Below are positions 1 through 29,591 of a stretch of DNA of 39,086 nucleotides, in pieces; position 1 is the stretch's first letter; every line of letters starts with the position of its first letter. Source of the stretch: Klebsiella phage ST13-OXA48phi12.1; the sequence record MK422453.1; one strand, written 5' to 3'. The notes beneath the pieces were generated by a model that made no database searches, had not been told where the DNA came from, and saw only the letters and a program-made list of their open reading frames with translations. The position numbers and the translations under genes were made by a program.

Positions 1-1467
<1,467 letters not shown>

Positions 1468-1471
1468 TCTG

Positions 1472-1578: not shown

Positions 1579-3324
1579 ATGGCTGGACGAATTCCACGTG
1601 TATTTATTAGCGATCTGCTTGCCAGAACCGACATCGTCGATCTGATCGATGCGCGGGTAAAGCTGAAAAAGCAGGGCAAAAATTTTCACGCGTGCTGTCC
1701 GTTTCATAACGAAAAAACCCCCTCTTTCACCGTCAACGGTGAAAAACAGTTTTACCACTGCTTCGGCTGCGGGGCGCACGGCAATGCTATCGACTTCCTG
1801 ATGAACTACGACAAGCTCGAGTTCGTGGAAACGGTCGAAGAGCTGGCCGCCATGCACAACCTCGAAGTGCCTTATGAAGCAGGCAACGGACCCAGCCAGA
1901 TAGAGCGCCATCAACGGCAGAACCTCTACCAGTTACTGGATGGTCTGAATGCGTTTTATCAACAGTCTCTGATGCAGCCCGCCGCCGATCCTGCGCGCCA
2001 GTACCTGGCGAAACGGGGGTTAAGCAGCGAGGTGATTACGCGCTTTGCCATCGGCTATGCTCCCCCAGGTTGGGATAACGTTTTAAAACGGTTTGGCGGC
2101 AATCAGGAAAACCGCCAGTCGCTTATTGATGCCGGCATGCTGGTCACCAACGATCAGGGACGCAGTTACGACCGCTTCCGCGAACGGGTGATGTTCCCCA
2201 TCCGCGATAAGCGAGGCCGGGTGATTGGGTTTGGCGGACGGGTGCTGGGCGATGCCCTGCCGAAGTATCTGAACTCCCCGGAAACCGACATATTCCATAA
2301 AGGCCGCCAGCTGTATGGCCTGTATGAAGCGCAGCAGGATAACCCCGAACCACCGCGTTTGCTGGTTGTCGAAGGGTATATGGACGTCGTGGCGCTGGCG
2401 CAGTACGACATTAATTATGCCGTGGCCTCGCTGGGTACCTCGACCACGGCCGACCATATCCAGCTGCTGTTCCGGGTGACGAATAACGTCATCTGCTGCT
2501 ACGACGGCGACCGGGCCGGCCGCGATGCCGCCTGGCGCGCGCTGGAGACGGCGCTGCCGTACATGACCGATGGTCGCCAGCTACGCTTTATGTTTCTGCC
2601 TGACGGCGAAGACCCGGATACGCTGGTGCGTAAAGAGGGCAAAGCGGCGTTCGAGGCGCGGATGGAGCAGGCTCAGCCGCTCTCCACGTTCTTGTTTAAC
2701 AGCCTGCTGCCGCAGGTCGATCTGAGTACTCCGGACGGGCGCGCGCAGCTGAGCACGCTGGCGCTGCCGCTGATAACCCAGGTCCCGGGCGAAACGCTGC
2801 GCATCTATTTGCGTCAGGAGTTGGGCAATAAGCTGGGCATTTTAGATGACGCGCAGCTTGAACGATTAATGCCAAAACAGGCGGAAAATGGCGCGCCGCG
2901 TCCCGCACCGCAGCTAAAACGCACGACCATGCGTATACTGATAGGACTGCTGGTGCAAAACCCGGATCTGGCGCCGTTAGTCCCGCCGCTGGAGGGACTG
3001 GACTCGCGCAAAATGCCGGGACTGAGCCTGTTCAGCGAACTAGTGAAGAGCTGTCTGGCGCAGCCTGGTCTGACAACCGGGCAACTTTTAGAGCAATATC
3101 GCGGCACAAAAGAGGCGGCAACCCTTGAAAAACTGTCGATGTGGGACGATATAGCAGATAAAGACATCGCTGAACAAACCTTCACCGACTCGCTCAACCA
3201 TATGTTTGATTCACTGCTGGAACTGCGACAGGAAGAGTTGATAGCTCGCGATCGCACACACGGTTTAAGCAGTGAAGAACGCCGGGAGCTCTGGACCATC
3301 AGCCAGGAGCTGGCGAAAAAATAA
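1579..3324 (+). CDS. dnaG: DNA primase
   Basis: 581-aa ORF with a CHC2 zinc finger (CCPFHNEKTPSF...CFGCGAHG), the TOPRIM motif (EGYMDVV...YDGDRAG) and a DnaB-interaction C-terminal domain. The operon context supports the call. Confidence 0.95.
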   Translation: MAGRIPRVFISDLLARTDIVDLIDARVKLKKQGKNFHACCPFHNEKTPSFTVNGEKQFYHCFGCGAHGNAIDFLMNYDKLEFVETVEELAAMHNLEVPYEAGNGPSQIERHQRQNLYQLLDGLNAFYQQSLMQPAADPARQYLAKRGLSSEVITRFAIGYAPPGWDNVLKRFGGNQENRQSLIDAGMLVTNDQGRSYDRFRERVMFPIRDKRGRVIGFGGRVLGDALPKYLNSPETDIFHKGRQLYGLYEAQQDNPEPPRLLVVEGYMDVVALAQYDINYAVASLGTSTTADHIQLLFRVTNNVICCYDGDRAGRDAAWRALETALPYMTDGRQLRFMFLPDGEDPDTLVRKEGKAAFEARMEQAQPLSTFLFNSLLPQVDLSTPDGRAQLSTLALPLITQVPGETLRIYLRQELGNKLGILDDAQLERLMPKQAENGAPRPAPQLKRTTMRILIGLLVQNPDLAPLVPPLEGLDSRKMPGLSLFSELVKSCLAQPGLTTGQLLEQYRGTKEAATLEKLSMWDDIADKDIAEQTFTDSLNHMFDSLLELRQEELIARDRTHGLSSEERRELWTISQELAKK

Positions 3325-3338
3325 ATGACAGACAATAT

Positions 3339-3386
3339 CCTTCACGTTGTATCAAAGCAGTAAGAAAACGCAGAACAACGTGAAGG
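3339..3386 (+). promoter_or_regulatory. 11-bp perfect inverted repeat CCTTCACGTTG ... CAACGTGAAGG (25-nt spacer) in the dnaG-rpoD intergenic region
   Basis: Read directly from the sequence. It lies in the region that carries the RNA processing/antitermination elements and the rpoD heat-shock promoter in E. coli. Confidence 0.35.
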
Positions 3387-3542
3387 AAAAGTATTTAACG
3401 GCTTAAGTGCCGAGTATCGATCGGGAAGCCCCCGACAGCCGCGCAGAGGCGCAGCGGCAATAATATAAGTACGCCCTCGCTTTAAATGTCGACAGCCCGT
3501 CTGCCGACACCAATCAAACGAATTAAGTGTGGATACCGTCTT

Positions 3543-5384
3543 ATGGAGCAAAACCCGCAGTCACAGCTGAAGCTTCTTGTCCAACGTGGTAAGGAGCAAG
3601 GCTATCTGACCTATGCCGAGGTCAATGACCATCTGCCGGAAGATATCGTCGATTCCGATCAGATCGAAGACATCATCCAAATGATCAACGACATGGGTAT
3701 TCAGGTGATGGAAGAAGCACCGGATGCCGATGATCTGATGCTTGCCGAAAACACCGCGGATGAAGATGCTGCCGAAGCCGCCGCGCAGGTGCTCTCCAGC
3801 GTGGAATCCGAAATCGGGCGCACGACCGACCCGGTGCGTATGTACATGCGTGAAATGGGTACCGTAGAGCTGCTGACCCGTGAAGGCGAAATTGACATCG
3901 CCAAACGCATCGAAGACGGCATCAATCAGGTGCAGTGCTCCGTTGCCGAATATCCGGAAGCGATCACCTACCTGCTTGAGCAGTACGACCGCGTTGAAGC
4001 GGAAGAAGCCCGTCTGTCCGATCTGATCACCGGTTTCGTCGATCCGAACGCCGAAGAAGATATGGCGCCAACCGCCACCCACGTTGGCTCCGAGCTGTCT
4101 CAGGAAGAGATGGATGACGACGAAGACGAAGACGAAGATGAAGACGCCGACGACAACAGCGATGACGACAACAGCATCGACCCAGAGCTGGCCCGTGAGA
4201 AATTCGCCGAGCTGCGTACCCAGTACGAGCTGACGCGCGACACCATCAAAGCCAAAGGTCGTAGCCATGCCGCCGCCCAGGAAGAGATCCTGAAGCTGTC
4301 TGAAGTCTTCAAGCAGTTCCGCCTGGTGCCGAAGCAGTTCGATTACCTGGTCAACAGCATGCGCAGCATGATGGATCGCGTTCGTACTCAGGAACGTATC
4401 ATCATGAAGCTGTGCGTTGAGCAGTGCAAAATGCCGAAGAAAAACTTCATCACCCTGTTCACCGGCAACGAAACCAGCGAGACCTGGTTCAACGCCGCGG
4501 TGGCAATGAACAAGCCGTGGTCTGAGAAGCTGCTGGAAGTGAAAGAAGATGTGCAGCGCGGCCTGCAGAAGCTGCAGCAGATTGAAGAAGAGACCGGCCT
4601 GACCATCGAGCAGGTTAAAGATATCAACCGTCGCATGTCCATCGGCGAAGCGAAAGCCCGTCGTGCGAAGAAAGAGATGGTTGAAGCGAACCTGCGTCTG
4701 GTTATCTCTATCGCCAAGAAATACACCAACCGCGGTCTGCAGTTCCTCGACCTGATTCAGGAAGGCAACATCGGTCTGATGAAAGCGGTCGATAAGTTCG
4801 AATACCGTCGTGGCTACAAGTTCTCGACCTACGCCACCTGGTGGATCCGTCAGGCCATCACCCGCTCTATCGCGGATCAGGCGCGCACCATCCGTATTCC
4901 GGTGCATATGATTGAGACTATCAACAAGCTCAACCGTATCTCCCGTCAGATGCTGCAGGAGATGGGCCGTGAACCGACCCCGGAAGAGCTGGCTGAGCGT
5001 ATGCTGATGCCGGAAGACAAAATCCGTAAAGTGCTGAAGATCGCCAAAGAGCCTATCTCCATGGAAACGCCGATCGGCGACGATGAAGATTCGCATCTGG
5101 GGGATTTCATCGAGGATACCACCCTCGAGCTGCCGCTGGATTCTGCGACCACCGAGAGCCTGCGCGCGGCAACGCATGACGTGCTGGCCGGCCTCACCGC
5201 TCGTGAAGCGAAAGTGCTGCGTATGCGTTTCGGTATCGACATGAACACCGACCACACGCTGGAAGAAGTGGGTAAACAGTTCGACGTTACCCGCGAACGT
5301 ATCCGTCAGATCGAAGCGAAGGCGCTGCGTAAACTGCGCCACCCGAGCCGTTCTGAAGTGCTGCGTAGCTTCCTCGACGATTAA
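3543..5384 (+). CDS. rpoD: RNA polymerase sigma factor sigma70 (RpoD), 613 aa
   Basis: Start chosen at [13 protein letters not shown] (internal to six-frame ORF 3486..5384) to match the canonical RpoD N-terminus. It has the acidic region [19 protein letters not shown] and regions 2-4 ([43 protein letters not shown]...). Confidence 0.95.
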
Positions 5385-5413
5385 TCGTCGCGGGGCATCG
5401 TCTACAGCCTGTT

Positions 5414-5441
5414 AAAAAGCTCCCTGCGGGGAGCTTTTTTT
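5414..5441. terminator. bidirectional rho-independent terminator between convergent rpoD and mug (AAAAAGCTCCC-TGCG-GGGAGCTTTTTTT)
   Basis: GC-rich stem flanked by an A-tract on one side and a T-tract on the other, located between the rpoD stop (5384) and the mug stop (5484). Confidence 0.8.
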
Positions 5442-5483
5442 ATGGCGTTCAGGTGGCCATCCCGGGAAAGTCGCCTCTCTCCG

Positions 5484-5990
5484 CTACTGGCCGCGGGTTG
5501 CCAGGGCATCGTCCAGTTCACGATAGGCCGCCACCAGCTTATCGAGCGTCGCCCGGTTTAAGCCGCTGGGATTAGGCAGCACCCACACCTGGGTCGTCCC
5601 GATGGTCATAGCCTGTTTCCCCCACTTCGCGCCGCGCTGGTTAAAGGCCAGCTCGAAGGCCTGCTTGCCGAGCACCGCCAGCGCCTGCGGCTGATACTCC
5701 TCAATTTTACGTACCAGCTCACGGCCGCCGCTGCGTAACTCCTGCAAGGCGACCTCGCTGGCCTGCACCGTCGGACGCTCTACCAGCATGGTGATGCCGC
5801 AGCGCGTATCCAGCAGCTGCAGCTCCTCTTCCGGCCTGAGCTGCCGATCGGTGAACCCGGCCTGATGGATGACCTTCCAGAAGCGATTGCCAGGATGGGC
5901 AAAATGAAAGCCGGTATGGGCGGAGGACTTCCCCGGGTTGATACCGCAAAAGACAACGCGCAGGCCCGGCGCAAGGATATCGCTAATCAT
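5484..5990 (-). CDS. mug: G/U mismatch-specific DNA glycosylase (Mug), 168 aa
   Basis: [20 protein letters not shown]...NPSGLN matches the Mug/TDG family N- and C-terminal motifs. Its position between rpoD and ileX is as in E. coli. Confidence 0.9.
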
Positions 5991-6098
5991 GTTTTCTCCG
6001 GCTGTATGGCTAAAACATGATTATAAAGGATTGAAAATGCATTGTTTATAAAAACAGCAGCTGCGCGCTTTACGCTGGATTGCAATCGCCAGTTACTT

Positions 6099-6104
6099 TA
6101 TAAT
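6099..6104 (+). promoter_or_regulatory. -10 hexamer TATAAT followed by a GC-rich discriminator (CCCTCGCC) 10 nt upstream of the tRNA
   Basis: Perfect consensus -10. The nearest -35-like TTGCAA (6080-6085) has only a 13-bp spacer, so the -35 assignment is uncertain. Confidence 0.4.
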
Positions 6105-6114
6105 CCCTCGCCAC

Positions 6115-6190
6115 GGCCCCTTAGCTCAGTGGTTAGAGCAGGCGACTCATAATCGCTTGGTCGTTGGTTCAAACCCAACAGGGGCCACCA
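6115..6190 (+). tRNA. ileX: tRNA-Ile2 (anticodon CAU, lysidine-modified; ileX-type), 76 nt with encoded CCA
   Basis: GGCCCCTTAGCTCAGTGGTTAGAGCAGGCGACTCATAATCGCTTGGTCGTTGGTTCAAACCCAACAGGGGCCACCA is near-identical to E. coli ileX. The differences are compensatory changes in the T-stem (GTTGG/CCAAC here versus GCTGG/CCAGC in E. coli). It serves as the prophage attachment site. Confidence 0.92.
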
Positions 6191-8576: not shown

Positions 8577-11200
8577 GAATCGTACCCCCCTTGATCACTG
8601 AAATTGCTGCGGGCCTTCGCCTTCATGCGTCGCTCGCGCGCATCAAGCTGCCGTGCAACTTCCTGCGCAATATCCTGCGTGCTCTGACCGGGCAGAGCCT
8701 GGATAATAATTTGCGCATGGGTTTCAAACTGGAATACAGGCTGGCTGCCTGCTGGCTTATCAGTTACAGGACGGTATGAAGCTGCCGGCAGACTCATTGG
8801 ATGAAGCGGGGCGGCCTCTGCTGGCATTGCTCCCCCCATCATTCCGGCGACTACGGACGCCAGCGCGGCCGTTCTCCTGCGGCTGGTCACATAGGCCGGA
8901 CCGTTAATCAGCTCCGGGCCATTCTCGCCAGCAATACCCACCTGTCCACGTGGAATATAGCCACCACTGTCATACATCCCCGCGAAAAATCCTGGGGTCT
9001 TTTTCTGCGGTGAGGCGCCCTGCGAATTATCGCCGCCGGTCATCCAGTCCGGCAGGTAGCTTTTGACCGATGCCAGCTTGCTCTTAAGCGTTTCCCATTT
9101 CTCATTGATACCGCTCAGGATGCCGTCAATGATCGCCCCGCCCACCGCTTTAAATTTTGCGGGCAGCGCGGCAACATCACTCAGAATTTCATCCCATTTG
9201 CTGCTTATGGTCTGCTTAATCACAGCCCAGGCTACTGATACCCCTGACGTGATGGCATCCCACAGTGCTTTAAACTTCGGCCCCAGCGTTTCCCAGTTCT
9301 GCCAGATATAGATGGCTCCCATCGCAATCAGGCCAACTATCGCCAGAATGGGGTTAGCCATCATCAACCGGCCTAACCAGAGGACCGACTGGCCCGCACC
9401 ACCAATCACCTGCTTTATCAGACCAAAAGCGGAGGCAAACTTAATTCCCAGAACCCCAGCACTCACCCGCAGTACCGCCATAGGTCCCAAAATGGATGCC
9501 AGGGCCAGTGACACCACACCCGCAGCGGTAGCAACAACGGCAAATACCGCCGCAATCTTAAACAGCGCCGCCGTCAGTTGCGGATGACGCTTCACAAAAC
9601 CATCCAGCGCGGACGCCAGATTACCCAGCCAGTCCGCAATATTTTTCAGCACCGGCGCGACGGTTTCACCGATGCTCGCCATGGCGTTGGTAAAGGAGCC
9701 GCCAGCGGCTTCCCATTTGTTGTCTAGGGTATTAAGCGATGCATCGACGCGCTCGCGCAGGGTTGCCTGGTTCTCCAGCTTCGCTACTGTTTCACGATAA
9801 CCATCAATACCTTTTTGGATCATGATATCCAACGCCTGTAGCGTTTCTGAATCATTGCCAAACAGGTCTTTTTTTGTTGCCATCTGCTTCTCGGGAGTAA
9901 GTTTGCTCAGCTTACTTAGCTGGACATACATATTTTCCAGCCCACCAAATCCTCCCTTACCATCAGAAAAATTAAACTTAATGCCGGTCCCTTTTAGATC
10001 ATCATTAACAGCTTTAATTTTCTTTGCATCCAGGGCAGCCTGGAATATTTTCCGATACGCATTCCCAGCAGACTCCCCGGCCATACTTGCCTGGTCGGCC
10101 ATAACCAGCAGTGGGGCAAAGGTTTTAGCTGCATCTATCCCTTTTTTATTTAGGATACTCATCGCGCTACTAATTTTTGAAAAACCCTGCAGCATATTCC
10201 CGGGGTCTACGCCCGCATAAAAACCACGCTGGATAAGATCCATCAGGCTCATCATGTCATTTTCGGTGGTCTGCGTGGCGTCCTGCAATTTTGCGGCAAA
10301 CTCTGCCGCCTCCGTCGGCGCCATTTGCAGCTGCACGCCAAGGTAAGCCGCCGACTCACCCAGCCCGCCCAGGATAACCTGCGCTGACATCCCCTGACGG
10401 CGTAACATGGTCATCATGTTCTGAAAATCTGCCGTGGTACCGGGCAACCGGTCCCCCAGGGCAATCGCCAGCTTATTCAGCTTCAGGAACTCAGGCGCCA
10501 CCTTTCCGCCCGGTCCCATCATTGAGCCTGCCAGCTGGTTAGCGGCGTTCTCTGATTCCGAGTAGGCGCGAATGGGCGCCAGCAAGGTCGCGCCCGTTGT
10601 CACCCCGGCCGCCATCATCCCGGCCCCGTTCCCCGCCAGGCTGTTACGCACGTCGCGCATCTTGTCAGCTTTGGCCCTGATCGCATTCAGCTTGCGCTGG
10701 CGCTCGCCCACGTCCCGCAAGCGCCGCTCCTGCTCTGCCAGCTGCTGGTTATAGCGATCCGTTTCGCGGGTAATTCTGGCCGTTTCACGGGCGCCACCGC
10801 CCGCAGAGATGCCAAGGCGGTACAGCTCCGCCCTGGTTGCCGCCATCTGCCGCGTTTCCTGCTGCTGCTTTTGTTCCAGGCGTGATACGGCGCGCCATTG
10901 CGCCTCAAGCGCCTGCGTCTGTTTTTTCGTGGGGGATTCGAGCGCTGCCAGTTCGCGCGTCATCATCTGCGCACGCAGCCGCGCCTGGTCCAGCTCGTTG
11001 CTGGTCCGGTTCAGGCTCTGTGAGAGCTGATCAAAAGATTTTAACTGGCCCCCCGCGTCGTTAAGCCGTTTAAGCTGATCACGGGTCTGTCGGATGCCGG
11101 AGGCCAGCTCCTTCGAGCCAGCCAGCGCATTTTTTAAAGGGCGGGTGAGTTTATCAACCGCATTCAGAACCACCTGCAGGCGCAGGTTTTTATCACTCAT
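8573..11200 (-). CDS. T: tail tape-measure protein (P2 gpT-like), 875 aa
   Basis: Long coiled-coil, Ala/Gly-rich protein with hydrophobic stretches, located between E/E' and U. Confidence 0.9.
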   Translation of the reverse strand: MSDKNLRLQVVLNAVDKLTRPLKNALAGSKELASGIRQTRDQLKRLNDAGGQLKSFDQLSQSLNRTSNELDQARLRAQMMTRELAALESPTKKQTQALEAQWRAVSRLEQKQQQETRQMAATRAELYRLGISAGGGARETARITRETDRYNQQLAEQERRLRDVGERQRKLNAIRAKADKMRDVRNSLAGNGAGMMAAGVTTGATLLAPIRAYSESENAANQLAGSMMGPGGKVAPEFLKLNKLAIALGDRLPGTTADFQNMMTMLRRQGMSAQVILGGLGESAAYLGVQLQMAPTEAAEFAAKLQDATQTTENDMMSLMDLIQRGFYAGVDPGNMLQGFSKISSAMSILNKKGIDAAKTFAPLLVMADQASMAGESAGNAYRKIFQAALDAKKIKAVNDDLKGTGIKFNFSDGKGGFGGLENMYVQLSKLSKLTPEKQMATKKDLFGNDSETLQALDIMIQKGIDGYRETVAKLENQATLRERVDASLNTLDNKWEAAGGSFTNAMASIGETVAPVLKNIADWLGNLASALDGFVKRHPQLTAALFKIAAVFAVVATAAGVVSLALASILGPMAVLRVSAGVLGIKFASAFGLIKQVIGGAGQSVLWLGRLMMANPILAIVGLIAMGAIYIWQNWETLGPKFKALWDAITSGVSVAWAVIKQTISSKWDEILSDVAALPAKFKAVGGAIIDGILSGINEKWETLKSKLASVKSYLPDWMTGGDNSQGASPQKKTPGFFAGMYDSGGYIPRGQVGIAGENGPELINGPAYVTSRRRTAALASVVAGMMGGAMPAEAAPLHPMSLPAASYRPVTDKPAGSQPVFQFETHAQIIIQALPGQSTQDIAQEVARQLDARERRMKAKARSNFSDQGGYDS

Positions 11201-11626
11201 CGCTGGCCCCGCTACGCATTATCGCTCTGTGCCGCCACTCCAGCACTTCCGTCAGCGGCATAACGTCAGTGACGGACGGCGGCCAGTGAAAGATCGTGGC
11301 GATATCCGCCACCAGGTCATCTACCGTCAGGCTGTCGGCAAATCGGCAAGTGCCGACTTCGGCAACAAAAAAAGGACCACCTCGACAGACATCGCGGCCA
11401 GGTCTGCCGGGTCGAGGTCCGTCATTTCCTGCGGGGTCAGCGTTGGTGTGGAGATACGGGGGATCACGGTCATCATAGAGGCCACGTCCATCTCCATCAC
11501 CGCCTGCAGTCGCGTACCGCGCAGCGCGCCGGATTGCGGCTTACGCAGCACAATTTCCGTAATCGTGGTATCACCGCGCTTAATCGGGCTATCCAGTTTC
11601 ACCGTTGCTTCTGTTTTCTCACTCAT
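11193..11626 (-). CDS. E: tail assembly chaperone gpE and its -1 frameshift extension gpE+E' (slippery heptamer T_TTT_TTG at 11366-11372 on the minus strand)
   Basis: E (11327..11626, 99 aa) ends ...VVLFLLPKSALADLPTA. I translated the -1 frame by hand from the TTTTTTG site: it stays open for 59 more codons to a TGA at 11193-11195, which overlaps the T start codon ATGAGTGA, exactly as in P2 E/E'-T. Confidence 0.8.
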
Positions 11627-11678
11627 GCTCTTTTCCTGTTATGGGTTGGTTGGCGCGACCTCGCGCGCCAGAAAAAAA

Positions 11679-12194
11679 TTACAGACCAATGGCGTTACGG
11701 TGTTCTTCCATCAGGTCAACACCATCAACAACTTCAATCATGTTGATCGCATCGACCTCATAGAGCACTTCACCGTTAATGGTCAGCTTCGCGTAACAGT
11801 TAACGCTGCTGACTTTGGTGGAATTGCTCTCGCCGGTTTTCCACTCGCCGGAATCCACCTCTTTGTGGCGCCCACGGACGACCAGCTCAACGGCCTGAAC
11901 TTCGCCGGTGTCGTCGCGCTGAATAGACCCGGTAAAGCGCAGCTGCACGCCGTCCACCGTGGCTTTGCCCATCTGTTTAAACAAAAGCGCCTCCGTACCT
12001 CCGATGGTCATTTCCGTATCCAGCGCGCCATCATCCAGCCCCAGATCAATACCGACTGAACCGGGCATACCGCCGCCGCGGTAGTTTTCCAGCTTTCGGG
12101 TGAATTTCGGCAGGGTGACGGATTCAGCAATGCCCATCCAGTTGTTACCGGCGTTAAAAATATTCAGGTGTTTTAACTTGCGTGGTAAGGCCAT
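11679..12194 (-). CDS. FII: tail tube protein (P2 FII-like), 171 aa
   Basis: MALPRKLKHLNIFNAGNNWMGIAESVTLPKFTRKLENYRGGG resembles P2 FII, and the gene lies directly downstream of FI. Confidence 0.9.
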   Translation of the reverse strand: MALPRKLKHLNIFNAGNNWMGIAESVTLPKFTRKLENYRGGGMPGSVGIDLGLDDGALDTEMTIGGTEALLFKQMGKATVDGVQLRFTGSIQRDDTGEVQAVELVVRGRHKEVDSGEWKTGESNSTKVSSVNCYAKLTINGEVLYEVDAINMIEVVDGVDLMEEHRNAIGL

Positions 12195-12203
12195 GGGTCC
12201 CCC

Positions 12204-13376
12204 TTATGCGCTTACGCGGGTGGTGAAATCCACCAGGTAACGGTCAGTGATGCGCTGGCGCAGCATCAGGTTTTCCAGTGGCGGCACTGGCGTATAGTCG
12301 TAGTCGATCCAGAGTTTCCCGGATTTCAGCGTGTCTTTGTCATTCACACTGTCATCAATCCAGCAATCACCGCCGATGAGGTAGCCCTGATTTACCAGGC
12401 TGCGCATTTTGGCGCGGATACCTTCGATAATGTCGCGAGCCAGCGAAGGGTTAAGCGGCTGGTCCACCGCCCACATATGCGCCTCCGCCATGGTGTCTGC
12501 CAGCACCTGCGCGGTACGGGTGTAGTTTTCAAACTGGAATAACGGGTCATCGCTGAGGCAGCGGGAACCCCAGAAGCGGAAACCATCCTTGCGGATCAAG
12601 GTGGTGACGTCGTTCTGGTTCAGCAGTCCGGCATCGGTTGCCGGGTCCTGCAGATCCCAGAACACATCCGCAGACAAGCCGGTTACGCCGTTGACGCCCA
12701 CGTTAGAAAGGGTTTTATGCCAGCCGGTCTGCTCGTCGATTTTTGCACGCAGACCCAGCGCACGGGCAGTGGCGTAAGCAGTCGCATCTGCCTGCAGCAC
12801 CGTGTCAAAGTTGATGAAATCAGGCCAGATCAGCATCCCTTCTCGCTGACTGAAATTTTCGCGGTAGGCAATCGCTTCCTCCACAGTTTTACAACCGTAG
12901 GCAGACAGATACGCAAAGCCGCGCAGGCTCTGCGCCACGCTCAACAGCTCAGTGGAAACAGCCTGCGTGTCATGGCCCGGCACGCCCAGAATGCGCGGCT
13001 TCACACCCAGCTGCGACTGCGCCGAAAGCAGCGCTTTGATGCCCGTTTTCTTACCGTCAGCGGTTACACCGCCGATAATATTGGAGGTGGTTTCCGCTTC
13101 GGTTTCGCCCTGGGCAACACGCACCACAACGGTGACGGGTTTTGCCTGGTCGGCGATGGCGTCCAGTGAGCGGGCCAGCGTGCCGGACTCGCCCGCTTTG
13201 CCGCTGGCGGTCAGTACATCGGTAAGCAGAACCGGCTTATTGAGCGGGAACACAGAGGCATCGGCATCATCGCCGGTGCATACCATGCCCACAATCGCCG
13301 TGCTCACCGTCGTGATAGAGCGGGTGCCGTCGTTAACTTCAACAACACGCACGCCGTGGTGATAGTCTTGCGCCAT
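12204..13376 (-). CDS. FI: contractile tail sheath protein (P2 FI-like), 390 aa
   Basis: [34 protein letters not shown]...[20 protein letters not shown] is highly similar to P2 FI. Confidence 0.93.
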
Positions 13377-13463: not shown

Positions 13464-13477
13464 ACCGCAGACAGAAA

Positions 13478-13500
13478 AAAGCCCCTTATCGGGGCAGACT
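13478..13500 (-). terminator. rho-independent terminator after the H-like fibre gene (GCCCCGATAAGGGGC + TTTTTTCTG on the minus strand)
   Basis: GC stem plus T-run on the minus strand, between the fibre gene stop (13515) and the PF element. Confidence 0.7.
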
Positions 13501-13514: not shown

Positions 13515-14597
13515 TCAGGCAACGCGGCTCCAGCACATCAGCAGCGTGTGGGACTCAACCACGTTGATTGATTTCCCTTCACCGAGGTTATCGGTTTTGC
13601 CAGTGGTCGTGTGTTTGTGGGCTGGCAAGTCCACAATATGGCTATGATCGGCCACCTCATCCGTATAATTTCGTGTGCGGCGGCTGTCGTTATCCGAACC
13701 GACTATGTAATTATCATCCCAGACATCACCCGGGGCGAGCATTCCGCCTTTGTGTTTATGCCGTCCGGCCCCCCTGGTGGTCAGTTCCTGCCTGGGGAGT
13801 TCGCTGGTTTCGCCACTGACATTAACCTGCACAGCTGGCAGGTTAGCCTGCTGGATAGTGACATTATCGCTGCCGCCGGTCGTACCGACGTTCGAGCCAT
13901 CCGCTTTGCCTACACGAATTGTTTTATTCTCGCCGGTGTACACCCATTCTGACCATGGCCATTTTTCATTCGGGTTGACGTTCTGATTAAAAAATCGCGT
14001 GGTGCCGACAGGGTTATCGTCCTCCCAGAAATTACGCTTTGCCTCCGTTATCGCATCAGCAATCACCTGCTGAATGTCCGTATCAAGCTGGCCTACAATC
14101 TTATCTGTATAATCCTTCACATCATTCTTCGCTCTTTCGACCTCGCTCACTGTCGCCAGAATGATGCAGGGGTCAGTGATTAGATTGACGCTGGCGGTAT
14201 TACTGACGGCAATCCACATATTGACGGATTGCAACCTGCCTGACCCCTCTGCCAGTAGCGGCTTATAGGTCGGTGCCATGTTCGCGACGGCGAGACAAAC
14301 CCCCTCGTCGTCATACAGTGCAGCCTCTCTTAGCCAGAAACCGCCGACCTGCGGCAGCATAATCATTTCCGCGCGAATAACGTTGGCCTGCTGGTCTGCT
14401 ATCACCACGCGATTCAGGGGGGCACGCCATACCTCGTTGATTAACCCGGTTTGTAGGGGGTCAGGTATAGCCGATACGCCGCCACCATCCCCTACGGCCA
14501 TCACAGAGAATCCCACCGGCTCCCCAGTGACTGCCGCACGGGTCATCGCTTCCTCACCGGCGCGCGTGAGGATGGCACAGAATTTTTTATCGCTCAC
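13515..14597 (-). CDS. short tail fibre protein with P2 gpH-type N-terminal (baseplate-attachment) domain and His-rich C-terminal tip, 360 aa (GTG start)
   Basis: MSDKKFCAILTRAGEE...MAVGDGGG...LINEVWRAPLN...VGGFWLREAALYDDEG...VANMAPTYKPLLAEGSGR aligns with the P2 H N-terminus. The C-terminus carries HKHKGG...HSHIVDLPAHKH HxH motifs like lambda Stf/T4 fibre tips. A GGGAGGG SD lies 7 nt upstream of the GTG. Confidence 0.8.
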   Translation of the reverse strand: MSDKKFCAILTRAGEEAMTRAAVTGEPVGFSVMAVGDGGGVSAIPDPLQTGLINEVWRAPLNRVVIADQQANVIRAEMIMLPQVGGFWLREAALYDDEGVCLAVANMAPTYKPLLAEGSGRLQSVNMWIAVSNTASVNLITDPCIILATVSEVERAKNDVKDYTDKIVGQLDTDIQQVIADAITEAKRNFWEDDNPVGTTRFFNQNVNPNEKWPWSEWVYTGENKTIRVGKADGSNVGTTGGSDNVTIQQANLPAVQVNVSGETSELPRQELTTRGAGRHKHKGGMLAPGDVWDDNYIVGSDNDSRRTRNYTDEVADHSHIVDLPAHKHTTTGKTDNLGEGKSINVVESHTLLMCWSRVA

Positions 14598-14617
14598 CTG
14601 TCACCCTCCCGATTCGG

Positions 14618-15355
14618 CTACTGCAATCCAAAAAACGCCTTAATAGGCACATACACCGCGTCAATCTCGGCATCAGTTAACGCCCGCGGATAAATCGCCG
14701 CAAAGTACAAGTCGCCTTTTGATGCTGTCGCCGCCGTGTAATGTGATCCCAGCAGGATATTCCCGGCCTGAAGCAGGACGCCATTAGCCGGAATGGCATT
14801 CTGCTGGCTTTTTTTGTTCACCAGGTCACGCAAACGCGTTGTCATCGCTGACTGGCTGAATACCGACGCAATAGCTCGCCTTTTAACCGTGTCGGCACCT
14901 GCTGTAATGCCATAGGACAGTGATAGCCTGGTCGCAAAATTATCGAGGGTGTACCCCAGCGACAACGTCGGGTTGCCCGTCGCATTTGACTGCTGCGCAA
15001 AATCAATGGAGGTTAATCCAGACCCGCCATTTGTAACTGGCGAGCCATAGTTAGACCAGTGGATAAAATTGCTGGTTGTCCCGGCTGGCTGCCCCAGCGT
15101 GATGATCGTCATTTCACCGGTCTGTTTCACGCCGGTATCAATATAGCTTTCCATGCTGGTCAGGGTAACGCTCCGGTCATTAACAACCGGCGAGCCAATG
15201 ACCGTCGCATCCGGCCGACCGTTGATCAGATTGCGGGCCGGGCTGCTGTCAGCACCGAAAATATTGGCGTAAACCGCGCCGTCAACAGGCAGTAAAAAAC
15301 CGGTCGCGAACGCTGAAATATCGCTGATGTTGCCTAACAAAAATCCTGTGCTCAT
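14618..15355 (-). CDS. hypothetical tail-fibre-locus protein, 245 aa (possible fibre accessory/adhesin/chaperone)
   Basis: Start chosen at MSTGFLLGNISD with an AGGGG SD 8 nt upstream. The upstream ATG of ORF 14618..15397 overlaps the preceding gene. There is no recognisable family. It sits between two receptor-binding genes. Confidence 0.55.
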   Translation of the reverse strand: MSTGFLLGNISDISAFATGFLLPVDGAVYANIFGADSSPARNLINGRPDATVIGSPVVNDRSVTLTSMESYIDTGVKQTGEMTIITLGQPAGTTSNFIHWSNYGSPVTNGGSGLTSIDFAQQSNATGNPTLSLGYTLDNFATRLSLSYGITAGADTVKRRAIASVFSQSAMTTRLRDLVNKKSQQNAIPANGVLLQAGNILLGSHYTAATASKGDLYFAAIYPRALTDAEIDAVYVPIKAFFGLQ

Positions 15356-15360
15356 TATGT

Positions 15361-17781
15361 TTACCCCTGCGTAAATGTCCGGGAGAAGGCTATGCACCAG
15401 TTCTCCATCGGGTATGGTTTACCGATTAATTCGGCGATATTTTCCTCAGGCCATTGCGTGAATTGCGGGTCGTATTCGTATACCTCGTCAGGCACATAGT
15501 CATCGCTGTCAGTCAGCATTCCCTGGCCCTCTGACTGTTTGGAGCCATAGAGGACGCGCACCGTCCCGACGGGAGGCGTAGTGCAGACAATTTTCACTAT
15601 TGTGTCGGCGACGATCTCCACGCTGGCAATAGTCAGTTCCGTACCGATCCCGGCGGCGTCAGCCTGGATGTTGTGGAAAACACGAAAGCCCTTATTGGCT
15701 ATGTCAATCCTCGAACCTACCCGGAACGGGCGCTGCCACTTTAGCGGCGGATGTTCAACCAGGAAGCTGTTATAAATCGCATTGCCAATGACATAAAAAT
15801 CTCGCGGAGCCAGCGGCTGAAACGGGCGGCGCTGGTTAAGTACCCTGTCCGCAACTTTGGCGAAATAGCATCCCATCCACCGGCTACCGTTAGTCATGAG
15901 GTGACCCTGTTTATCCGGGAGCTGATAATTTGGCCCCACCATCAGGCAGTTTTTGTTTTCCTGGCAAAACTCGTACTGAGCCTCACCAATCGGCAGCGTC
16001 ACTGCATTAATCGGCGAATTATCAGGGTTCGGGGTGTAAACATAGCCAGTCTGATACATGAGCCACACCGGATCGTCGGCTTGTCCGGTAATGGCGCGGA
16101 TAGTTGCCAGCATTTTAGTGCGCAACTGCCCCAGCAGCCCCTTGTAAACGGCTTTTGATGTGCCGTCCTGGTAGTCGCGCTCGCCCTGCATAAATGCCAG
16201 CAACGTAACGGAATAGCTCTTCCCCTCGCTGTCTGCCAGGGCTTTTGCTTTTGTCACGCAGTCAACAAAACGCTGATAATATTTCTCATCATCCAGCAGA
16301 GACGCAATTGACTGACCGGACAGGCCGACAGCGGATGCCACAAAAAGGCGTGAGTTATCGGCGCTGAAAGCGTTTTTTTCGAGGAAGTGGCGGCGAAAAC
16401 CATTTACAGCACCGACAATAGGGCTTTCCCCTTCGGGGCCAGCGTACCGGCCTAACGCCTGCTGCTCTGCATCTGTCAGGATCGTTGCCCCATCCACACT
16501 CTGAACCACGGATTTGAGCGGCTGGAAAGCTGCGTCGCCTAGGGGGGCAAATTCATTTTTGGACGCACTCGCCGGGCGCACGGAATTGCCGAGCATCAGA
16601 TTGCCGTATTTCGGGGTCTTTGAGACGGCAGGAAAGCACATAAACCCCATACCTAGCGACTGGCACTGCATAATAAAATGATTATATGCGTCTGACGGAA
16701 ATTTAAGCCGCGTCATAATGCGCCGGCCAGATTGTTCCATAACAGACAGGTTTACCGCATTCTGCTGGCGAATATACGCGGCTTCCGTCGTTTCCTCTCC
16801 ACCGCCACCATTACCATTGCCCTTTTTCAACCATGCCGGGACGCCATATTTATCAATAATGTCGTAAAAAAGGCCGTTACGGTCAGTCAGACGAATAATC
16901 GCGTCTGGCGTGCTGGTCAGATATACGCCATTACCCAGCGCGTATCGGGGGAAATTCGCGGAGCCGTCTTTTTTAATCAGGTCGCTGTAAATCCCATGCT
17001 CGCCGACCAGCCTTAAAATAGCGTCCGGTGTGCTCATGATTTGCAGGACGCCGGCGCGAATCCCCTCCTTGCTGATATAAGCCACGCCTGAACCAAAACC
17101 GCCCGCCCCGTCAACCTGCCAGGGGATAAGGCCGATTTCATCAACCAGCGCCAGCAAAAGATTGCCAATATCGGCCCGGCGAATCGTCCCTTTCAGGGGA
17201 AGCGCATCTGCACTGGCCTGCTCGGCCAGGGCCCGCACCGTATCCAGTGCCTGCCCACTTGCCAGAGTCATGATGAACCTGGCTTCGCCGTTATCGTTAA
17301 TGTAAATCACCTCGGACGGAGCGTTACTGTCATCGGTGATAACGCGGAACAGCTGGCCGCTAAACGTCGAGGCGATGCCCGTTTTCGTACCGTCTGGGTC
17401 ATCAACACCCGCCATTACGGTCGCGGCAACAGCCAGGCTGTTATAAATCAGACGTCCCGTCTTAACCGGTTCGCCTCCGACATTTTTATACTCAGCAACC
17501 CAAACACGCGGATCGGATGATCGTACAGAGAACACGGCACCATCGGGGATTTTCCCCTCATTGATGGCGGCGGCGGCGGCTTCCTCGCTGGCAAACGGCA
17601 TATCGCCTGATTTAATCAGCGTTCCTAATGCGTCCAGCTCATTTTTAAGGAATGCCGTTCGGTTTCCCAGCTGGGATGCCTGGATATTGGCCGCACCACC
17701 TCTGCCGCCTTCTACTTTTTCACCGCGGGTCAGCGCGTGGATTTCATTTTCCCAGCGTGGGGTTTCACTGATTTTGCTCAT
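15361..17781 (-). CDS. long tail fibre/tailspike protein with SGNH-type sialate-O-acetylesterase-like (SASA) domain, about 806 aa
   Basis: Start at MSKISETPRWENE, immediately after the I stop. A fibre-like N-terminus and an internal duplicated motif (STPDAILRL.GEHGIYSDLI / STPDAIIRLTDRNGLFYDII) are present. The esterase-type motifs LSGQSIASLL (GQSxx) and LLAFMQGERDY (QGE) suggest a carbohydrate esterase domain. Confidence 0.6.
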   Translation of the reverse strand: MSKISETPRWENEIHALTRGEKVEGGRGGAANIQASQLGNRTAFLKNELDALGTLIKSGDMPFASEEAAAAAINEGKIPDGAVFSVRSSDPRVWVAEYKNVGGEPVKTGRLIYNSLAVAATVMAGVDDPDGTKTGIASTFSGQLFRVITDDSNAPSEVIYINDNGEARFIMTLASGQALDTVRALAEQASADALPLKGTIRRADIGNLLLALVDEIGLIPWQVDGAGGFGSGVAYISKEGIRAGVLQIMSTPDAILRLVGEHGIYSDLIKKDGSANFPRYALGNGVYLTSTPDAIIRLTDRNGLFYDIIDKYGVPAWLKKGNGNGGGGEETTEAAYIRQQNAVNLSVMEQSGRRIMTRLKFPSDAYNHFIMQCQSLGMGFMCFPAVSKTPKYGNLMLGNSVRPASASKNEFAPLGDAAFQPLKSVVQSVDGATILTDAEQQALGRYAGPEGESPIVGAVNGFRRHFLEKNAFSADNSRLFVASAVGLSGQSIASLLDDEKYYQRFVDCVTKAKALADSEGKSYSVTLLAFMQGERDYQDGTSKAVYKGLLGQLRTKMLATIRAITGQADDPVWLMYQTGYVYTPNPDNSPINAVTLPIGEAQYEFCQENKNCLMVGPNYQLPDKQGHLMTNGSRWMGCYFAKVADRVLNQRRPFQPLAPRDFYVIGNAIYNSFLVEHPPLKWQRPFRVGSRIDIANKGFRVFHNIQADAAGIGTELTIASVEIVADTIVKIVCTTPPVGTVRVLYGSKQSEGQGMLTDSDDYVPDEVYEYDPQFTQWPEENIAELIGKPYPMENWCIAFSRTFTQG

Positions 17782-17782: not shown

Positions 17783-18400
17783 TTAACTTTTCCCGGTGTA
17801 ATAATAACTGCCGTCGAAACTCGCCTGACCATCAAAATAAATACTGTCATCCGGTTCATAACCTGGCGGATATATATCTATTACCTCACCATCAAATATT
17901 GATATCCCGACATTAGCAGCGCCACGACTACTGACTCCGAGTGTCATCTGCGATATATGGCGACTGACCGGCTTTGCATCACCAATAATCCGCTCCAGCT
18001 CTTTAATCATTGACTCAGTGATACCAATATCATTGAGGTCAATCTCAAGGCGGAATGTCCCGGCAGGGTCGGCCACTTCCCACCATTCCTGGAGCGTCAT
18101 GCTATAGCCCAGCGTTTCAATCACGCGCCGCACGGCAGCGACGGTTCCCTTGCGTTGGTGGATCCAGAAAGCATCACTGACCGCCTGGCGCTTCTCTTTT
18201 TCCGACCATGTTTCTTCCCAGCGGTCGACAGAAAACGCCCACGCCAGATAAGGCAGGAATTTCACAGGGCATTTCCACGGGTTCCACAGGTCACGCAGCG
18301 GCACGTTTAAATCACTGATACCTGAACAGGCTTGCGCCAGCCTGCGCTCCAGCGCAGACGACCCCGGCGGTAACAGGCTGCTAGTCATCAGAGCCACCAA
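17783..18400 (-). CDS. I: baseplate/tail protein gpI-like, 205 aa
   Basis: ELWNPWKCPVKFLPYLAWAFSVDRWEETW is similar to P2 I (LWNPDTCPANLLPWLAWAFSVDRWDEKW). Confidence 0.9.
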   Translation of the reverse strand: MVALMTSSLLPPGSSALERRLAQACSGISDLNVPLRDLWNPWKCPVKFLPYLAWAFSVDRWEETWSEKEKRQAVSDAFWIHQRKGTVAAVRRVIETLGYSMTLQEWWEVADPAGTFRLEIDLNDIGITESMIKELERIIGDAKPVSRHISQMTLGVSSRGAANVGISIFDGEVIDIYPPGYEPDDSIYFDGQASFDGSYYYTGKS

Positions 18401-19289
18401 TTTCTGCTTTAAAATCGGTGCAATATGACGCCTGCGTTTTATCTAACACCATGTCCGCCAGGGGCTTCATCAGCTCAACACGCTGGACGCCCTGAACATG
18501 CAAAGCGGCGTAGATCGCAGACAGCCGCACGTCACGCCCCAGGCGACGCTGCTCGTTGATGTACGCCGCACCCTGCGCTTTCGCGGCCGCCAGGATGGGT
18601 TCCTTTGCCGGTCCGGGATAGACATAAAGAACCGCATCAATTTCATAGGGGACAATCTCAGCAGATCGGACACTCACCCGATCCGCCACCGGCCGCACAG
18701 CCTCATCATTCAGGGCCTCACCGACGACCTGCAGTAAGTCTTCCGGCGCAGTACCATCGCCGTCGCGGGCCAGAATAGTCACCACGACTTCCGCCGGTGA
18801 CGGGCTGAACGCCGACGCGTCCGCCACCCGACCATCCGAGCTAAGCGCGTGATATTCATATGCTCCGACTGGCCCGGCTACGCTCATCCCCTCAAAGGCC
18901 GCCGGGATTCGCTGGCGATAATCCGCGTCAGATTCCATTACTGCCTCCGTTGGCGGCGTAGTGGTGTCGTCCGCAGCTGTAATCACCCGGCGCTGTACGT
19001 TGTTATTCGCGCCTAAATTGTCCAGGTCATCCCCGCCGGAATAGGCCACCATCACGGCTTTCGCCGCCTCGTTAATCCGCTGGCGCAGCAGCAGCTCCCG
19101 GTACACATTTTCCTGCAGCATTTTCACCACCGGCTCAGATTCAAGCGTTAAGGTGCGGGCCACGGCCTCCTGCTCTTCTGCCGGAAATAACGCGACAAAT
19201 TCAGCCTTGCGCTCAGTCAGCAGGGTTTCAAAATCCGGCACATCCACTATTTGCGGCGGCGGCAGCTGGGAAAGGTCAATAACGGCCAT
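18381..19289 (-). CDS. J: baseplate assembly protein gpJ-like, 302 aa
   Basis: Internal start MAVIDLSQLPPPQIVDVPDFETLL matches the P2 J N-terminus and length. The upstream 80 codons of ORF 18381..19529 overlap W and are not counted. Confidence 0.9.
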   Translation of the reverse strand: MAVIDLSQLPPPQIVDVPDFETLLTERKAEFVALFPAEEQEAVARTLTLESEPVVKMLQENVYRELLLRQRINEAAKAVMVAYSGGDDLDNLGANNNVQRRVITAADDTTTPPTEAVMESDADYRQRIPAAFEGMSVAGPVGAYEYHALSSDGRVADASAFSPSPAEVVVTILARDGDGTAPEDLLQVVGEALNDEAVRPVADRVSVRSAEIVPYEIDAVLYVYPGPAKEPILAAAKAQGAAYINEQRRLGRDVRLSAIYAALHVQGVQRVELMKPLADMVLDKTQASYCTDFKAEIGGSDD

Positions 19290-28870: not shown

Positions 28871-29590
28871 TTAAGATCGTTTCTGTTTACGATTCGACTC
28901 TATTTGTTTTTTAAGCTGGATAAGTCTTTCAACCAACTCAAAAACTTTTGTACTTGGATTATCAGTATCGCTAGCTTCAGCTGCCTGTAAACTTCTCTTA
29001 GCCCTCAGGACTACTTCATTTAAATCTTTTGAATCTAGAGCATTAAGGGTTTTATGAAAAATCCCTTTTGCGCCTTTCTCATAGTTCTTAATATATTTTT
29101 TTAACTCACTGACAATTTGATTTCCCGAACTGTTACCCGGTAAATTTCTAAATGCCTTTGTCGAATAGGTATAATGAAGAAGTAACCAATACTCAAAACA
29201 AGGTACTGAATTAACAGTAAACCAACTTGAACTTGGTTTACTTCTCCTGAGAGCATCGAGTGCTGCCACATAGTCAGTGTGGGCATCCTTATCAATCACT
29301 ACAAAGATTTGATCATAAGGAGCCCCCTTTTCAGTCATTTCTTTATGTTTTTCTTTTGCATGACGAACAACACACATTGGACTAGAGCCACACTCACCAG
29401 TTACATCAATTACACTAGCTGTAAGTAATTCATAATGGTTAATCAAATCCTCAAAATAGTTTGGTTCAGTTTTCTTACCCTCACAAACAATTAATATTTT
29501 AGCGAGAGGGGATTTAACTGCATTACGTCTTGCCAGATCCTTAGCAGTTTTAGGACCACGTTTCTTTTTAAATAAATCCTCGCTTCCCAT
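28871..29590 (-). CDS. TOPRIM-like nuclease partner (RloB/DUF4435-like; OLD-family C-terminal-domain analogue), 239 aa
   Basis: ILIVCEGKKTEPNYF (conserved Glu) and IFVVIDKDAHTD (DxD) fit a TOPRIM catalytic pair. The N-terminus is basic. The start codon overlaps the ATPase stop (translational coupling), and the gene is low in GC. Confidence 0.6.
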   Translation of the reverse strand: MGSEDLFKKKRGPKTAKDLARRNAVKSPLAKILIVCEGKKTEPNYFEDLINHYELLTASVIDVTGECGSSPMCVVRHAKEKHKEMTEKGAPYDQIFVVIDKDAHTDYVAALDALRRSKPSSSWFTVNSVPCFEYWLLLHYTYSTKAFRNLPGNSSGNQIVSELKKYIKNYEKGAKGIFHKTLNALDSKDLNEVVLRAKRSLQAAEASDTDNPSTKVFELVERLIQLKKQIESNRKQKRS

Positions 29591-29591
29591 A

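Follow-up and report, generated by a model that had tools for sequence, protein, structure and literature searches.

Of the enzymatic receptor-binding proteins (RBPs) that Klebsiella prophages encode, those with an SGNH-hydrolase domain are among the most frequent, and they often occur alongside RBPs of the gp11/gp12 type (PMC12115436, Kolupaeva et al. 2025; PMC13123978, Otwinowska et al., PLoS Biol 2026). Two such prophage fibres, 164_08-KL2 and 174_38-KL55, hydrolyse para-nitrophenyl acetate (pNPA), and deacetylation of the capsule was proposed as their function (PMC13123978). Earlier examples are Pectobacterium phage fibres and other SGNH fibres, and in Escherichia phage G7C the virion-borne SGNH esterase gp63.1 deacetylates the surface polysaccharide instead of cutting it and works with a second fibre protein, gp66 (as cited in PMC13123978 and PMC7693777). 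Here we describe a related locus in Klebsiella phage ST13-OXA48phi12.1 (sequence record MK422453.1), of which a stretch of 39,086 nucleotides (nt), hereafter the window, was analysed. At positions 13515-17781 this P2-like prophage encodes a long tail fibre of 806 amino acids (aa) with a predicted acetylesterase domain, a 245-aa protein with a predicted lectin fold and a short fibre of 360 aa. We consider it on balance probable that the three proteins together form a three-part receptor-binding apparatus.

All three genes were found on the minus strand in the order gene I, 806-aa fibre, 245-aa protein, 360-aa fibre and FI. An earlier sequence-only reading of this DNA had given three genes of these lengths between I and FI, and their coordinates were confirmed exactly (Table 1). 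The stop codon of gene I was separated from the ATG of the long fibre by 1 nt and the stop codon of the fibre from the ATG of the 245-aa gene by 5 nt, and a 20-nt spacer with a GGGAGGG ribosome-binding site preceded the GTG start of the 360-aa gene. This dense packing suggests translational coupling of the genes.

For the long fibre we built a monomer model with AlphaFold2 (AF2) on 19 homologues. The predicted local distance difference test score (pLDDT) was 69 for the whole protein and mostly between 80 and 95 for residues 335-806, and the N-terminal third was poor, as expected of a monomer model of a fibre. The best match of this model in a Foldseek search against the PDB was the Pan3 tailspike (9vyh, E 4e-20, ~710 aligned columns). 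The sialic-acid esterase SIAE (8f9p, E 1.5e-9), the acetylesterase XAC1771 of Xanthomonas (7kmm, E 3e-9) and the SASA-type esterase 1zmb (E 4e-8) were matched with probability 1.0, as were 2apj, the CE20 esterase 9ega and many GDSL esterases. By these matches the model has the three-layer alpha/beta/alpha fold of SGNH hydrolases. Direct sequence searches of the PDB with the three locus proteins gave nothing useful, and profiles were needed. With a profile of the domain only, the Pan3 tailspike was the sole significant sequence match (E 2e-5), and 1zmb was found at E 0.09.

Conservation of the catalytic motifs was assessed in the 19 homologues and in a 7-sequence alignment of the domain. Among the homologues Q374-S375-L376, which follows the strand 366-373, was invariant, as were Q532-G533 and H627-L628, while E534, G486 and G489 were nearly so, and the motifs were kept down to 31-39% identity. 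A HMMER alignment placed QGE532-534 of the fibre opposite HQGESD of 1zmb. The sequence-only reading had named two SGNH/SASA motifs, of which the QGE (532-534) stood. The literal GQS (489-491) did not prove to be the nucleophile motif, since it falls within the glycine region of block II, in which no residues but the glycines are conserved. The results support an SASA/SGNH-type acetylesterase fold for the 806-aa protein, in which the model and the conserved positions predict Ser375 as nucleophile together with His627 and the QGE. For the acetylesterase suggested beforehand, a predicted hydrolase fold and conserved Ser and His positions were thus found, the lack of which had been named as refuting it.

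Some observations speak against an active esterase. The SASA family PF03629 reached only 14.4 bits on the 806-aa protein (gathering cut-off 24.8; E 0.03; profile positions 86-222), although it was present in one distant homologue (P0033). No aspartate was conserved at position -3 of H627, where the sequence reads 'PDKQGH' here and 'PSKGGH' in some homologues, so catalysis would rely on a dyad of Ser and His or on an atypical triad. In the model, the loop directly preceding His627 had a pLDDT below 50. Moreover, Cys373 ('CQSLG') takes the place of the glycine of a canonical GQS. The cysteine, the missing block-V aspartate and the Pfam score below threshold would also fit a catalytically dead domain which acts solely as a polysaccharide-binding module. 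We think this improbable, since the invariance of Ser375, His627 and Q532-G533 and the near-invariance of E534 over the whole range of homologues argue for retained chemistry. The residue preceding Q374-S375 is G, C or S among the homologues, and this position therefore tolerates variation. Related SGNH fibres of Klebsiella prophages are active (PMC13123978), and atypical 'diluted' triads have been documented in structural neighbours (9h4u).

The remaining parts of the 806-aa protein are those of a tail fibre. Its fibre-like N-terminus, noted in the sequence-only reading, proved to be a conserved anchor of ~57 aa that is found in annotated tail fibres. The anchor was common to seven further PHROG families and to the unrelated 983-aa large RBP gp33 of a Kapieceevirus. 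By tblastn it opened fibre genes directly after gpI-like genes in 60 phage records, comprising Klebsiella P2-like, BcepMu-type, Pseudomonas and jumbo phages. An extra segment of ~62 aa (residues ~59-121; 17419-17607) lay between the anchor and a 'DDPDGTxTGI...LFRV' module; it was missing from Kapieceevirus gp33 and had very low model confidence. In the shaft, the duplication of a ~20-aa motif seen earlier turned out to be real with a unit of ~24 aa: residues ~247-272 and 287-312 (STPDAILRLVGEHGIYSDLIKKDG / STPDAIIRLTDRNGLFYDIIDKYG) gave a local alignment score of 70 compared to 19.5 +/- 3.9 for shuffled sequences, and homologues carried one to three copies. Within the C-terminal domain DSD758-760, NI781-782, YP790-791 and N794 were invariant among the 19 homologues. 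Residues 741-806 showed a mean pairwise identity of 0.45 and were as conserved as the catalytic domain. The distal end of a receptor-binding protein is not usually so well conserved.

The same esterase body was found on other N-termini in podo- and siphophage loci, among tail genes. The fibre N-terminus changes with the phage chassis. These findings also bear on the idea that the 806- and 245-aa genes are lysogenic-conversion cargo that modifies the capsule of the host and are not parts of the virion. O-acetylation of surface polysaccharides is a classic target of prophage conversion, and the two genes belong to a horizontally mobile cassette (see below). Nevertheless, we regard conversion as very remote. 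The genes lie inside the late tail operon between gene I and the collar fibre with spacers of 1-20 nt, the anchor is common to annotated tail fibres, and the esterase body occurs with other N-termini among the tail genes of podo- and siphophages. Their GC content further matches that of the surrounding phage genes, and no signal peptide was noticed on reading the N-termini, for which no predictor was used.

The 245-aa protein had been called unassignable in the sequence-only reading, a verdict that the structural comparison overturned. Its AF2 model was a jelly roll (pLDDT 76.5, predicted TM score (pTM) 0.82) with Foldseek matches to lectin-like domains of botulinum toxin Hc and of the Trypanosoma rangeli sialidase (E ~2e-6, TM 0.55-0.62, probability 1.0). 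Viral models (BFVD) matching it were uncharacterized phage proteins of the same family as well as many annotated as 'Concanavalin A-like lectin/glucanase' or 'LamG-like jellyroll'. By its model, the protein is a stand-alone jelly roll of the concanavalin A (ConA)/laminin G (LamG) type. Sequence profiles were less informative. The Pfam family Laminin_G_3 matched the C-terminus with 14 bits, below the gathering cut-off of 27.6, none of a diverse sample of 23 family members reached E 0.01 for any Pfam family, and family profiles searched against the PDB returned only pentraxin or an unrelated protein at E ~1-3. The refuting outcome named beforehand, a standard gpG-like chaperone, was not what we found: a gpG/Caudo_TAP-like identity was ruled out by the ConA-like fold together with the lack of any Pfam or PHROG chaperone match, and a location behind a fibre gene is all that the two have in common.

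An exhaustive HMMER search returned 1,329 cluster representatives of this lectin-fold family at E<=1e-3. The best 150 of these 1,329 relatives were stand-alone proteins of 227-263 aa, except for six shorter ones (85-167 aa), and none was longer. Conserved stretches were found at the N-terminus ('RNxAxGKPxAxVxGSP') and at the C-terminus ('IYSRALTDxE'), and the central third was the most variable.

A scan of the loci with hidden Markov models (HMMs) for both the esterase fibre and the lectin-fold family showed a close linkage between the two genes. In the window and in 7 phage loci, the gene directly downstream of the esterase fibre encoded a lectin-fold protein, with both genes on one strand and ~0-20 nt apart. 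The 7 phages were Vimunumvirus ST147-VIM1phi7.1, podophage vB_Kpn1-P3, Serratia phage Kashira (Vequintavirinae), Klebsiella phage Chronis, the lambda-like Serratia phage Opt-169, with the two genes located between gpI and gpJ, the Mu-like Burkholderia phage KS10 and Serratia phage Serbin. The same adjacency was present in a Mu-like metagenomic contig (L017) and in all 21 of 21 IMG/VR loci, a search that reached close relatives only. Three distant members of the lectin family (22-26% identical) were also encoded downstream of 565-650-aa proteins that have SGNH domains of the GDSL type, and one of the three domain matches was below the Pfam cut-off. Esterase and lectin partner were strongly correlated in their pairwise divergence (Mantel r 0.88; 0 of 5000 permutations reached this value), and the partner always diverged more than the esterase (mean identity 0.28 vs 0.42).

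Two further features were observed around these pairs. In several of the IMG/VR loci L038-L041 and L044 the esterase open reading frame (ORF) was shorter or split in two, which may reflect pseudogenisation, frameshifts or assembly errors; the lectin gene was intact and was split only in L044. An ORF of 68-80 aa followed the lectin gene in Chronis and Serbin, and none was present in the window.

The linkage extended to the DNA level. A cassette of 2,578 bp, comprising most of the fibre gene and the whole lectin gene, was 97% identical to positions 10578-13155 of the Mu-like contig L017. On either side of it no DNA similarity to L017 was found, and the flanks in the window were ~84% identical to Kapieceevirus (L001; e.g. 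17942-18500). The cassette was thus recently exchanged between Mu-like and P2-like chassis. In L017 (8642-13161) it follows Mu Gp48, a 247-aa Collar protein and a 207-aa Caudo_TAP chaperone. As the collar protein there has a Caudo_TAP of its own, the lectin partner is to be assigned to the esterase rather than to the collar fibre. The possibility that the lectin gene serves the downstream collar fibre was also rejected since the pair occurs in loci where no collar fibre was detected.

From these observations we tentatively propose, as a generalisation which we hold to be somewhat doubtful, that SGNH-esterase RBPs throughout the tailed phages have an obligate partner in the ~245-aa lectin-fold proteins (phrog_4390 and relatives). 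These proteins would dock on the conserved C-terminal domain of the fibre and supply a hypervariable sugar-contacting surface, and fibre and partner would form a two-gene cassette moving among myo-, sipho- and podophages. Several results weigh against the 245-aa protein being a carbohydrate-binding subunit of the virion. The lectin-fold domain was not seen fused to an esterase fibre among the top 150 relatives. The family alignment revealed no evident conserved ligand-site residues, and its invariant positions look structural. The sole exception among the sampled loci was Synechococcus phage Ssp-JY37 (L004 3046-5633), where the upstream gene encoded a 609-aa BNR_2 sialidase-like protein. This protein was rejected as an esterase (hhalign probability 0.2; Pfam match BNR_2), and the lectin partnership may extend to other carbohydrate-active RBPs. 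Finally, a chaperone role of the 245-aa protein would account for the linkage with the esterase equally well.

In that case the 245-aa protein would be a non-structural assembly chaperone of the esterase fibre that replaces P2 gpG or lambda Tfa, helps the trimer to fold and is absent from the virion. Its gene is directly downstream of the fibre gene as is that of gpG, it moves as a unit with the esterase body, and among the top 150 relatives it was never fused to a fibre. No Caudo_TAP was found in the window, where a Caudo_TAP chaperone used as a single-sequence phmmer query, a search of limited sensitivity, gave 0 matches at E<=10 among ORFs of at least 40 aa. A missing partner would also fit the 34 of 50 prophage RBPs for which, according to PMC13123978, expression alone yielded no detectable protein. 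We nevertheless rate a chaperone as rather unlikely. ConA/LamG jelly rolls typically bind carbohydrates or other ligands and are not known as fibre chaperones, and the two SGNH fibres in PMC13123978 were active without stated co-expression. The fastest-evolving part of the protein is its central loop-rich third, which would suit an exposed surface under selection better than a folding helper. We retain a lectin partner carried on the virion as the preferred reading.

The third protein of the locus combines two known modules. The sequence-only reading had recognised a baseplate-attachment N-terminus of the P2-H type, which the Pfam family PF12571 (Phage_tail_fib) bears out, and a tip with HxH repeats, of which there are three. 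A profile of seven tip sequences searched against the PDB matched the C-terminal domain of T4 gp10 (E 4e-4) and the gp37 tip 2xgf including the HxH segment (E 5e-4), and the Pfam family Gp10_C was found weakly and below its cut-off (E 0.012). H280/H282 and H318/H320 were invariant in the tip alignment. The tip was 30-36% identical to tail-fibre tips of Felixounavirus (Felix O1-like) phages, with 343 phage records matched, and 66% identical to that of Vimunumvirus ST147-VIM1phi7.1. Over its full length the protein was 77% identical to gp36 of Klebsiella phage ST512-KPC3phi13.2, with 90% identity in the tip. A long shaft with a gpH-type distal tip and a downstream gpG/Caudo_TAP was not found here, as the protein has only 360 aa and a tip of the gp10/gp37/Felix O1 type. 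By these homologies it is a short conserved fibre in which a P2-type adaptor is joined to a collar/HxH tip, and the tip may bind metal. Among the loci scanned, the gpH-type adaptor and this family of collar/HxH tips were detected only in Klebsiella P2-like loci and in L017.

How two fibres are held on a P2-type baseplate is a separate question. A cryo-electron microscopy preprint on P2 proposes that in each wedge one fibre is gripped at its gpH adaptor by the flexible gpI C-terminus (bioRxiv 10.64898/2026.09.14.750843). The two fibres encoded here stand against this one known fibre site per wedge, a point that counts against separate docking of both. The long fibre might instead branch off the short gpH-type fibre, in a G7C-like manner with gp63.1 held by gp66, to give one branched organelle. 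The single wedge site, at which the gpI C-terminus grips the gpH adaptor, would fit such an arrangement since the adaptor is here on the 360-aa protein, as would the pairing of an anchor-bearing large RBP with a collar fibre in all Klebsiella P2-like loci examined. We judge a branched organelle to be unlikely. In BcepMu-type and other myophages, fibre genes that begin with the same anchor directly follow gpI-like genes, which argues for direct docking on the baseplate, and among the scanned esterase loci the gpH-type adaptor and tip were restricted to the Klebsiella P2-like loci and L017. In addition, gpI of the window is ~30 aa longer than that of P2, which we take to be 176 aa, and this could matter for holding two different fibres or for offering a second site. 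The C-terminal tail of gpI was rich in Tyr, Asp and Gly (…YFDGQASFDGSYYYTGKS).

From the gene order, predicted folds, motifs, homologies, cassette exchange and linkage we infer enzyme activity, substrate, contacts and order of events as follows. The three genes would be co-transcribed after gene I. The long fibre, presumably a trimer as in other phage fibres, would consist of the chassis-specific 57-aa anchor, a short shaft, the esterase and the C-terminal beta-sandwich. In the modelled esterase, Ser375 would be the nucleophile, His627 the base and the QGE the oxyanion block. The fibre would recognise acetylated capsule or O-antigen and strip its O-acetyl groups, a specific primary adsorption mediated by the enzyme without depolymerising the polysaccharide. 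The 245-aa protein, which is inherited and exchanged as a unit with the esterase body, would attach to the fibre at its conserved C-terminal end. It would remain part of the virion and act in trans as a carbohydrate-binding subunit, whose fast-evolving central loops would help to set the polysaccharide specificity. The gpH-type adaptor of the 360-aa protein would dock on the gpI C-terminus, and its HxH tip, which is of a metal-binding type and conserved among Klebsiella P2-like phages, would bind a conserved secondary receptor, such as the lipopolysaccharide (LPS) core or the outer membrane, and trigger contraction.

The locus confirms esterase-type receptor binding, as predicted from the fibre, on a P2-type baseplate beside a conserved short fibre. 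If esterase and lectin partner indeed constitute a two-gene RBP, neither specificity predictions nor recombinant expression would be complete with 'SGNH fibres' alone. A need for the partner in assembly or specificity could help to explain why expression of many lone prophage RBPs failed and why the K-type is difficult to predict from the fibre sequence. If so, the engineering of phages or tailocins with esterase fibres for use against Klebsiella should take the lectin gene along. The lectin family itself, with more than 1,300 cluster representatives and no matching Pfam family or solved structure, is uncharacterized.

Gene boundaries and signals around the locus were also inspected. In public gene calls the middle gene is 259 aa long, starting from a GTG at 15397 with an overlap of 37 nt with the fibre gene; alignment with homologues and an upstream AGGGG motif support the ATG at 15355. 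The GC content was uniform over the locus (0.53-0.56) and like that of the neighbouring phage genes, and all three products fall in existing PHROG families. There was no room for a further gene inside the locus. Neither G nor Z/fun was present and no insert preceded FI, as the sequence-only reading had expected when it described the locus as lacking a G-like chaperone and a Z/fun insert, an absence to which the negative phmmer search also points. Between the 360-aa gene and FI there was a gap of 138 nt with a terminator-like hairpin, which on a pattern match only would close the V-W-J-I-fibre operon ahead of the sheath operon.

Table 1. Features of the receptor-binding locus and adjoining genes in the window; domain limits are predictions.
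Feature	Position	Strand	Evidence or remark
Baseplate wedge gene I, 205 aa	17783-18400	-	Pfam Tail_P2_I E 7e-49; phrog_48 E 3e-87
Long tail fibre with predicted acetylesterase domain, 806 aa	15361-17781	-	phrog_4201 'tail fiber' E 3e-139
N-terminal anchor of long fibre, ~57 aa	17611-17781	-	MSKISETPRWENEI...NRTAFLKNEL; common to PHROG families and Kapieceevirus gp33
Duplicated ~24-aa beta-hairpin motif in shaft, residues ~247-312	16846-17043	-	Self-alignment; AF2 strands
Predicted SASA/SGNH-type catalytic domain, residues ~355-655	15817-16719	-	S375 block I; G486/G489 block II; Q532-G533-E534 block III; H627 block V
Predicted C-terminal beta-sandwich, residues ~656-806	15364-15816	-	AF2 strands 659-745, 799-804; high pLDDT
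Predicted ConA/LamG-type jelly-roll protein, 245 aa	14618-15355	-	phrog_4390 (unknown function) E 1e-30
Cassette: fibre residues ~195-806 and whole lectin gene	14624-17200	-	97% DNA identity to L017
Short 'collar' fibre, 360 aa	13515-14597	-	phrog_4618 'tail collar fiber protein' E 8e-152
gpH-type N-terminal adaptor of short fibre, residues 4-149	14151-14588	-	Pfam Phage_tail_fib PF12571 E 1.2e-43
Collar and HxH tip of short fibre, residues 170-360	13518-14090	-	HKH280, HSH318, HKH327
Terminator-like hairpin and T6	13471-13495 (hairpin 13481-13495)	-	GCCCCGATAAGGGGC then TTTTTT; GCCCC-GATAA-GGGGC, five G-C pairs; pattern match
Sheath gene FI	12204-13376	-	Pfam Phage_sheath_1

P2-type tail, baseplate, integrase and CI genes were found in the window, and the prophage is P2-like from ~6.3 kb to the integrase (37961-39046). 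Host sequence at the left end (1-6190) comprised tsaD, dnaG, rpoD, a mug-like glycosylase and a tRNA with anticodon CAT (6115-6190), directly after which the prophage begins; the other end (37337-39046) carried the CI repressor and the integrase. The mug-like product was 100% identical to that of Klebsiella pneumoniae ATCC 13883, with 89% in the next best species. Copies of the locus proteins with 99-100% identity were found in assemblies from the Sequence Read Archive (SRA) and in one 37.5-kb IMG/VR prophage contig, and no relative of the locus except gene I was found in the E. coli genomes searched. Beside the portal gene we observed a low-GC (0.37-0.42) cargo island (28871-30857, minus strand) with an AbiL-type defence pair, consisting of a 239-aa AbiLii/RloB protein and a 421-aa AbiLi/AAA_21 ATPase, which looks like a usual P2 hotspot insertion. 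The early region further encoded a Dam-like orphan N6-adenine methyltransferase of the D12 class (34531-35481, minus strand; Pfam E 1e-70; PADLOC oMTase E 6e-103).

Compared with known systems, the locus shares with the gpH-gpG region of P2 the slot after gene I, the PF12571 adaptor and a terminator-like site before the FI operon. It differs in that the adaptor is on a 360-aa protein with a different tip and that two extra genes lie between I and the H-type gene. The 360-aa protein resembles the collar of T4 gp37/gp10/gp12 and the tips of Felix O1 in its 'GGSDxVTLxxANLP' collar motif and its HxH motifs, while its 'needle' is far shorter than in T4-type tips and has only three HxH motifs. The gp38 adhesin on gp37 of T2/T6 and BppA of Tuc2009 are small, separately encoded proteins, with genes next after that of the fibre, which attach to the fibre or baseplate and contribute to receptor specificity. 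They would be functional analogues of the 245-aa protein, with no relationship in sequence or fold, and attachment of the latter is hypothetical.

Among esterase fibres, the 806-aa protein is like 164_08-KL2 and 174_38-KL55 in being encoded by a K. pneumoniae prophage and in its C-terminal SGNH domain, a likeness drawn by description from fibres whose activity was on pNPA only. With its prophage origin in K. pneumoniae, its membership of phrog_4201 and its predicted SGNH fold, it has the features of the SGNH fibres described in PMC13123978. G7C is an N4-like podophage, and its gp63.1 was not among the top structural matches of the 806-aa model. The Pan3 tailspike (9vyh) comes from a podophage of a cyanobacterium and was 13-14% identical to the fibre. 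The coupling of a lectin gene to the esterase is the part we did not find described in the literature: a full-text search returned no publication combining SGNH, phage tail and LamG, and the text of PMC13123978 contains 0 occurrences of a concanavalin or lectin partner gene. The only published pairing of SGNH and ConA-like proteins that we found is in the Acinetobacter siphophages fLi-Aba02/03, where gp21 (SGNH) and gp22 (ConA-like lectin/glucanase) were called two separate 'tail fibers' (PMC11058221). The two are adjacent by number with no link drawn between them, and the likeness is one of description.

The closest relatives of the whole locus were found in Klebsiella P2-like phages. Kapieceevirus ST512-KPC3phi13.2 (L001 7938-11824) showed the same order, with a large RBP of 983 aa that has the same anchor but otherwise differs and is without a Pfam domain, then a Laminin_G_3 protein of another family and an extra 67-aa ORF that is absent from the window. 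This Laminin_G_3 protein, gp34, was rejected as a member of the lectin-fold family; it has the same position and weak C-terminal BLASTP similarity, with no HMM support. Vimunumvirus ST147-VIM1phi7.1 (gp24-gp27) was more similar to the window, with gene I followed by an esterase-type fibre of 754 aa, a 242-aa lectin-fold protein, a 359-aa collar fibre and the sheath gene, and with the same N-terminal anchor and the same short spacers. Its fibre was 34% identical to that of the window by full-length tblastn (41% over residues 355-806) and its lectin-fold partner ~25%, and its products were annotated just as 'tail fiber protein' and 'hypothetical protein'. The sequence-only reading had called the locus remodelled, which holds in comparison to P2 itself but not in the sense of a one-off, as the same order is standard in ICTV-classified Klebsiella Peduoviridae (Vimunumvirus, Kapieceevirus). 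The type of locus is thus already known, and its esterase-fibre order is typical of Klebsiella P2-like prophages.

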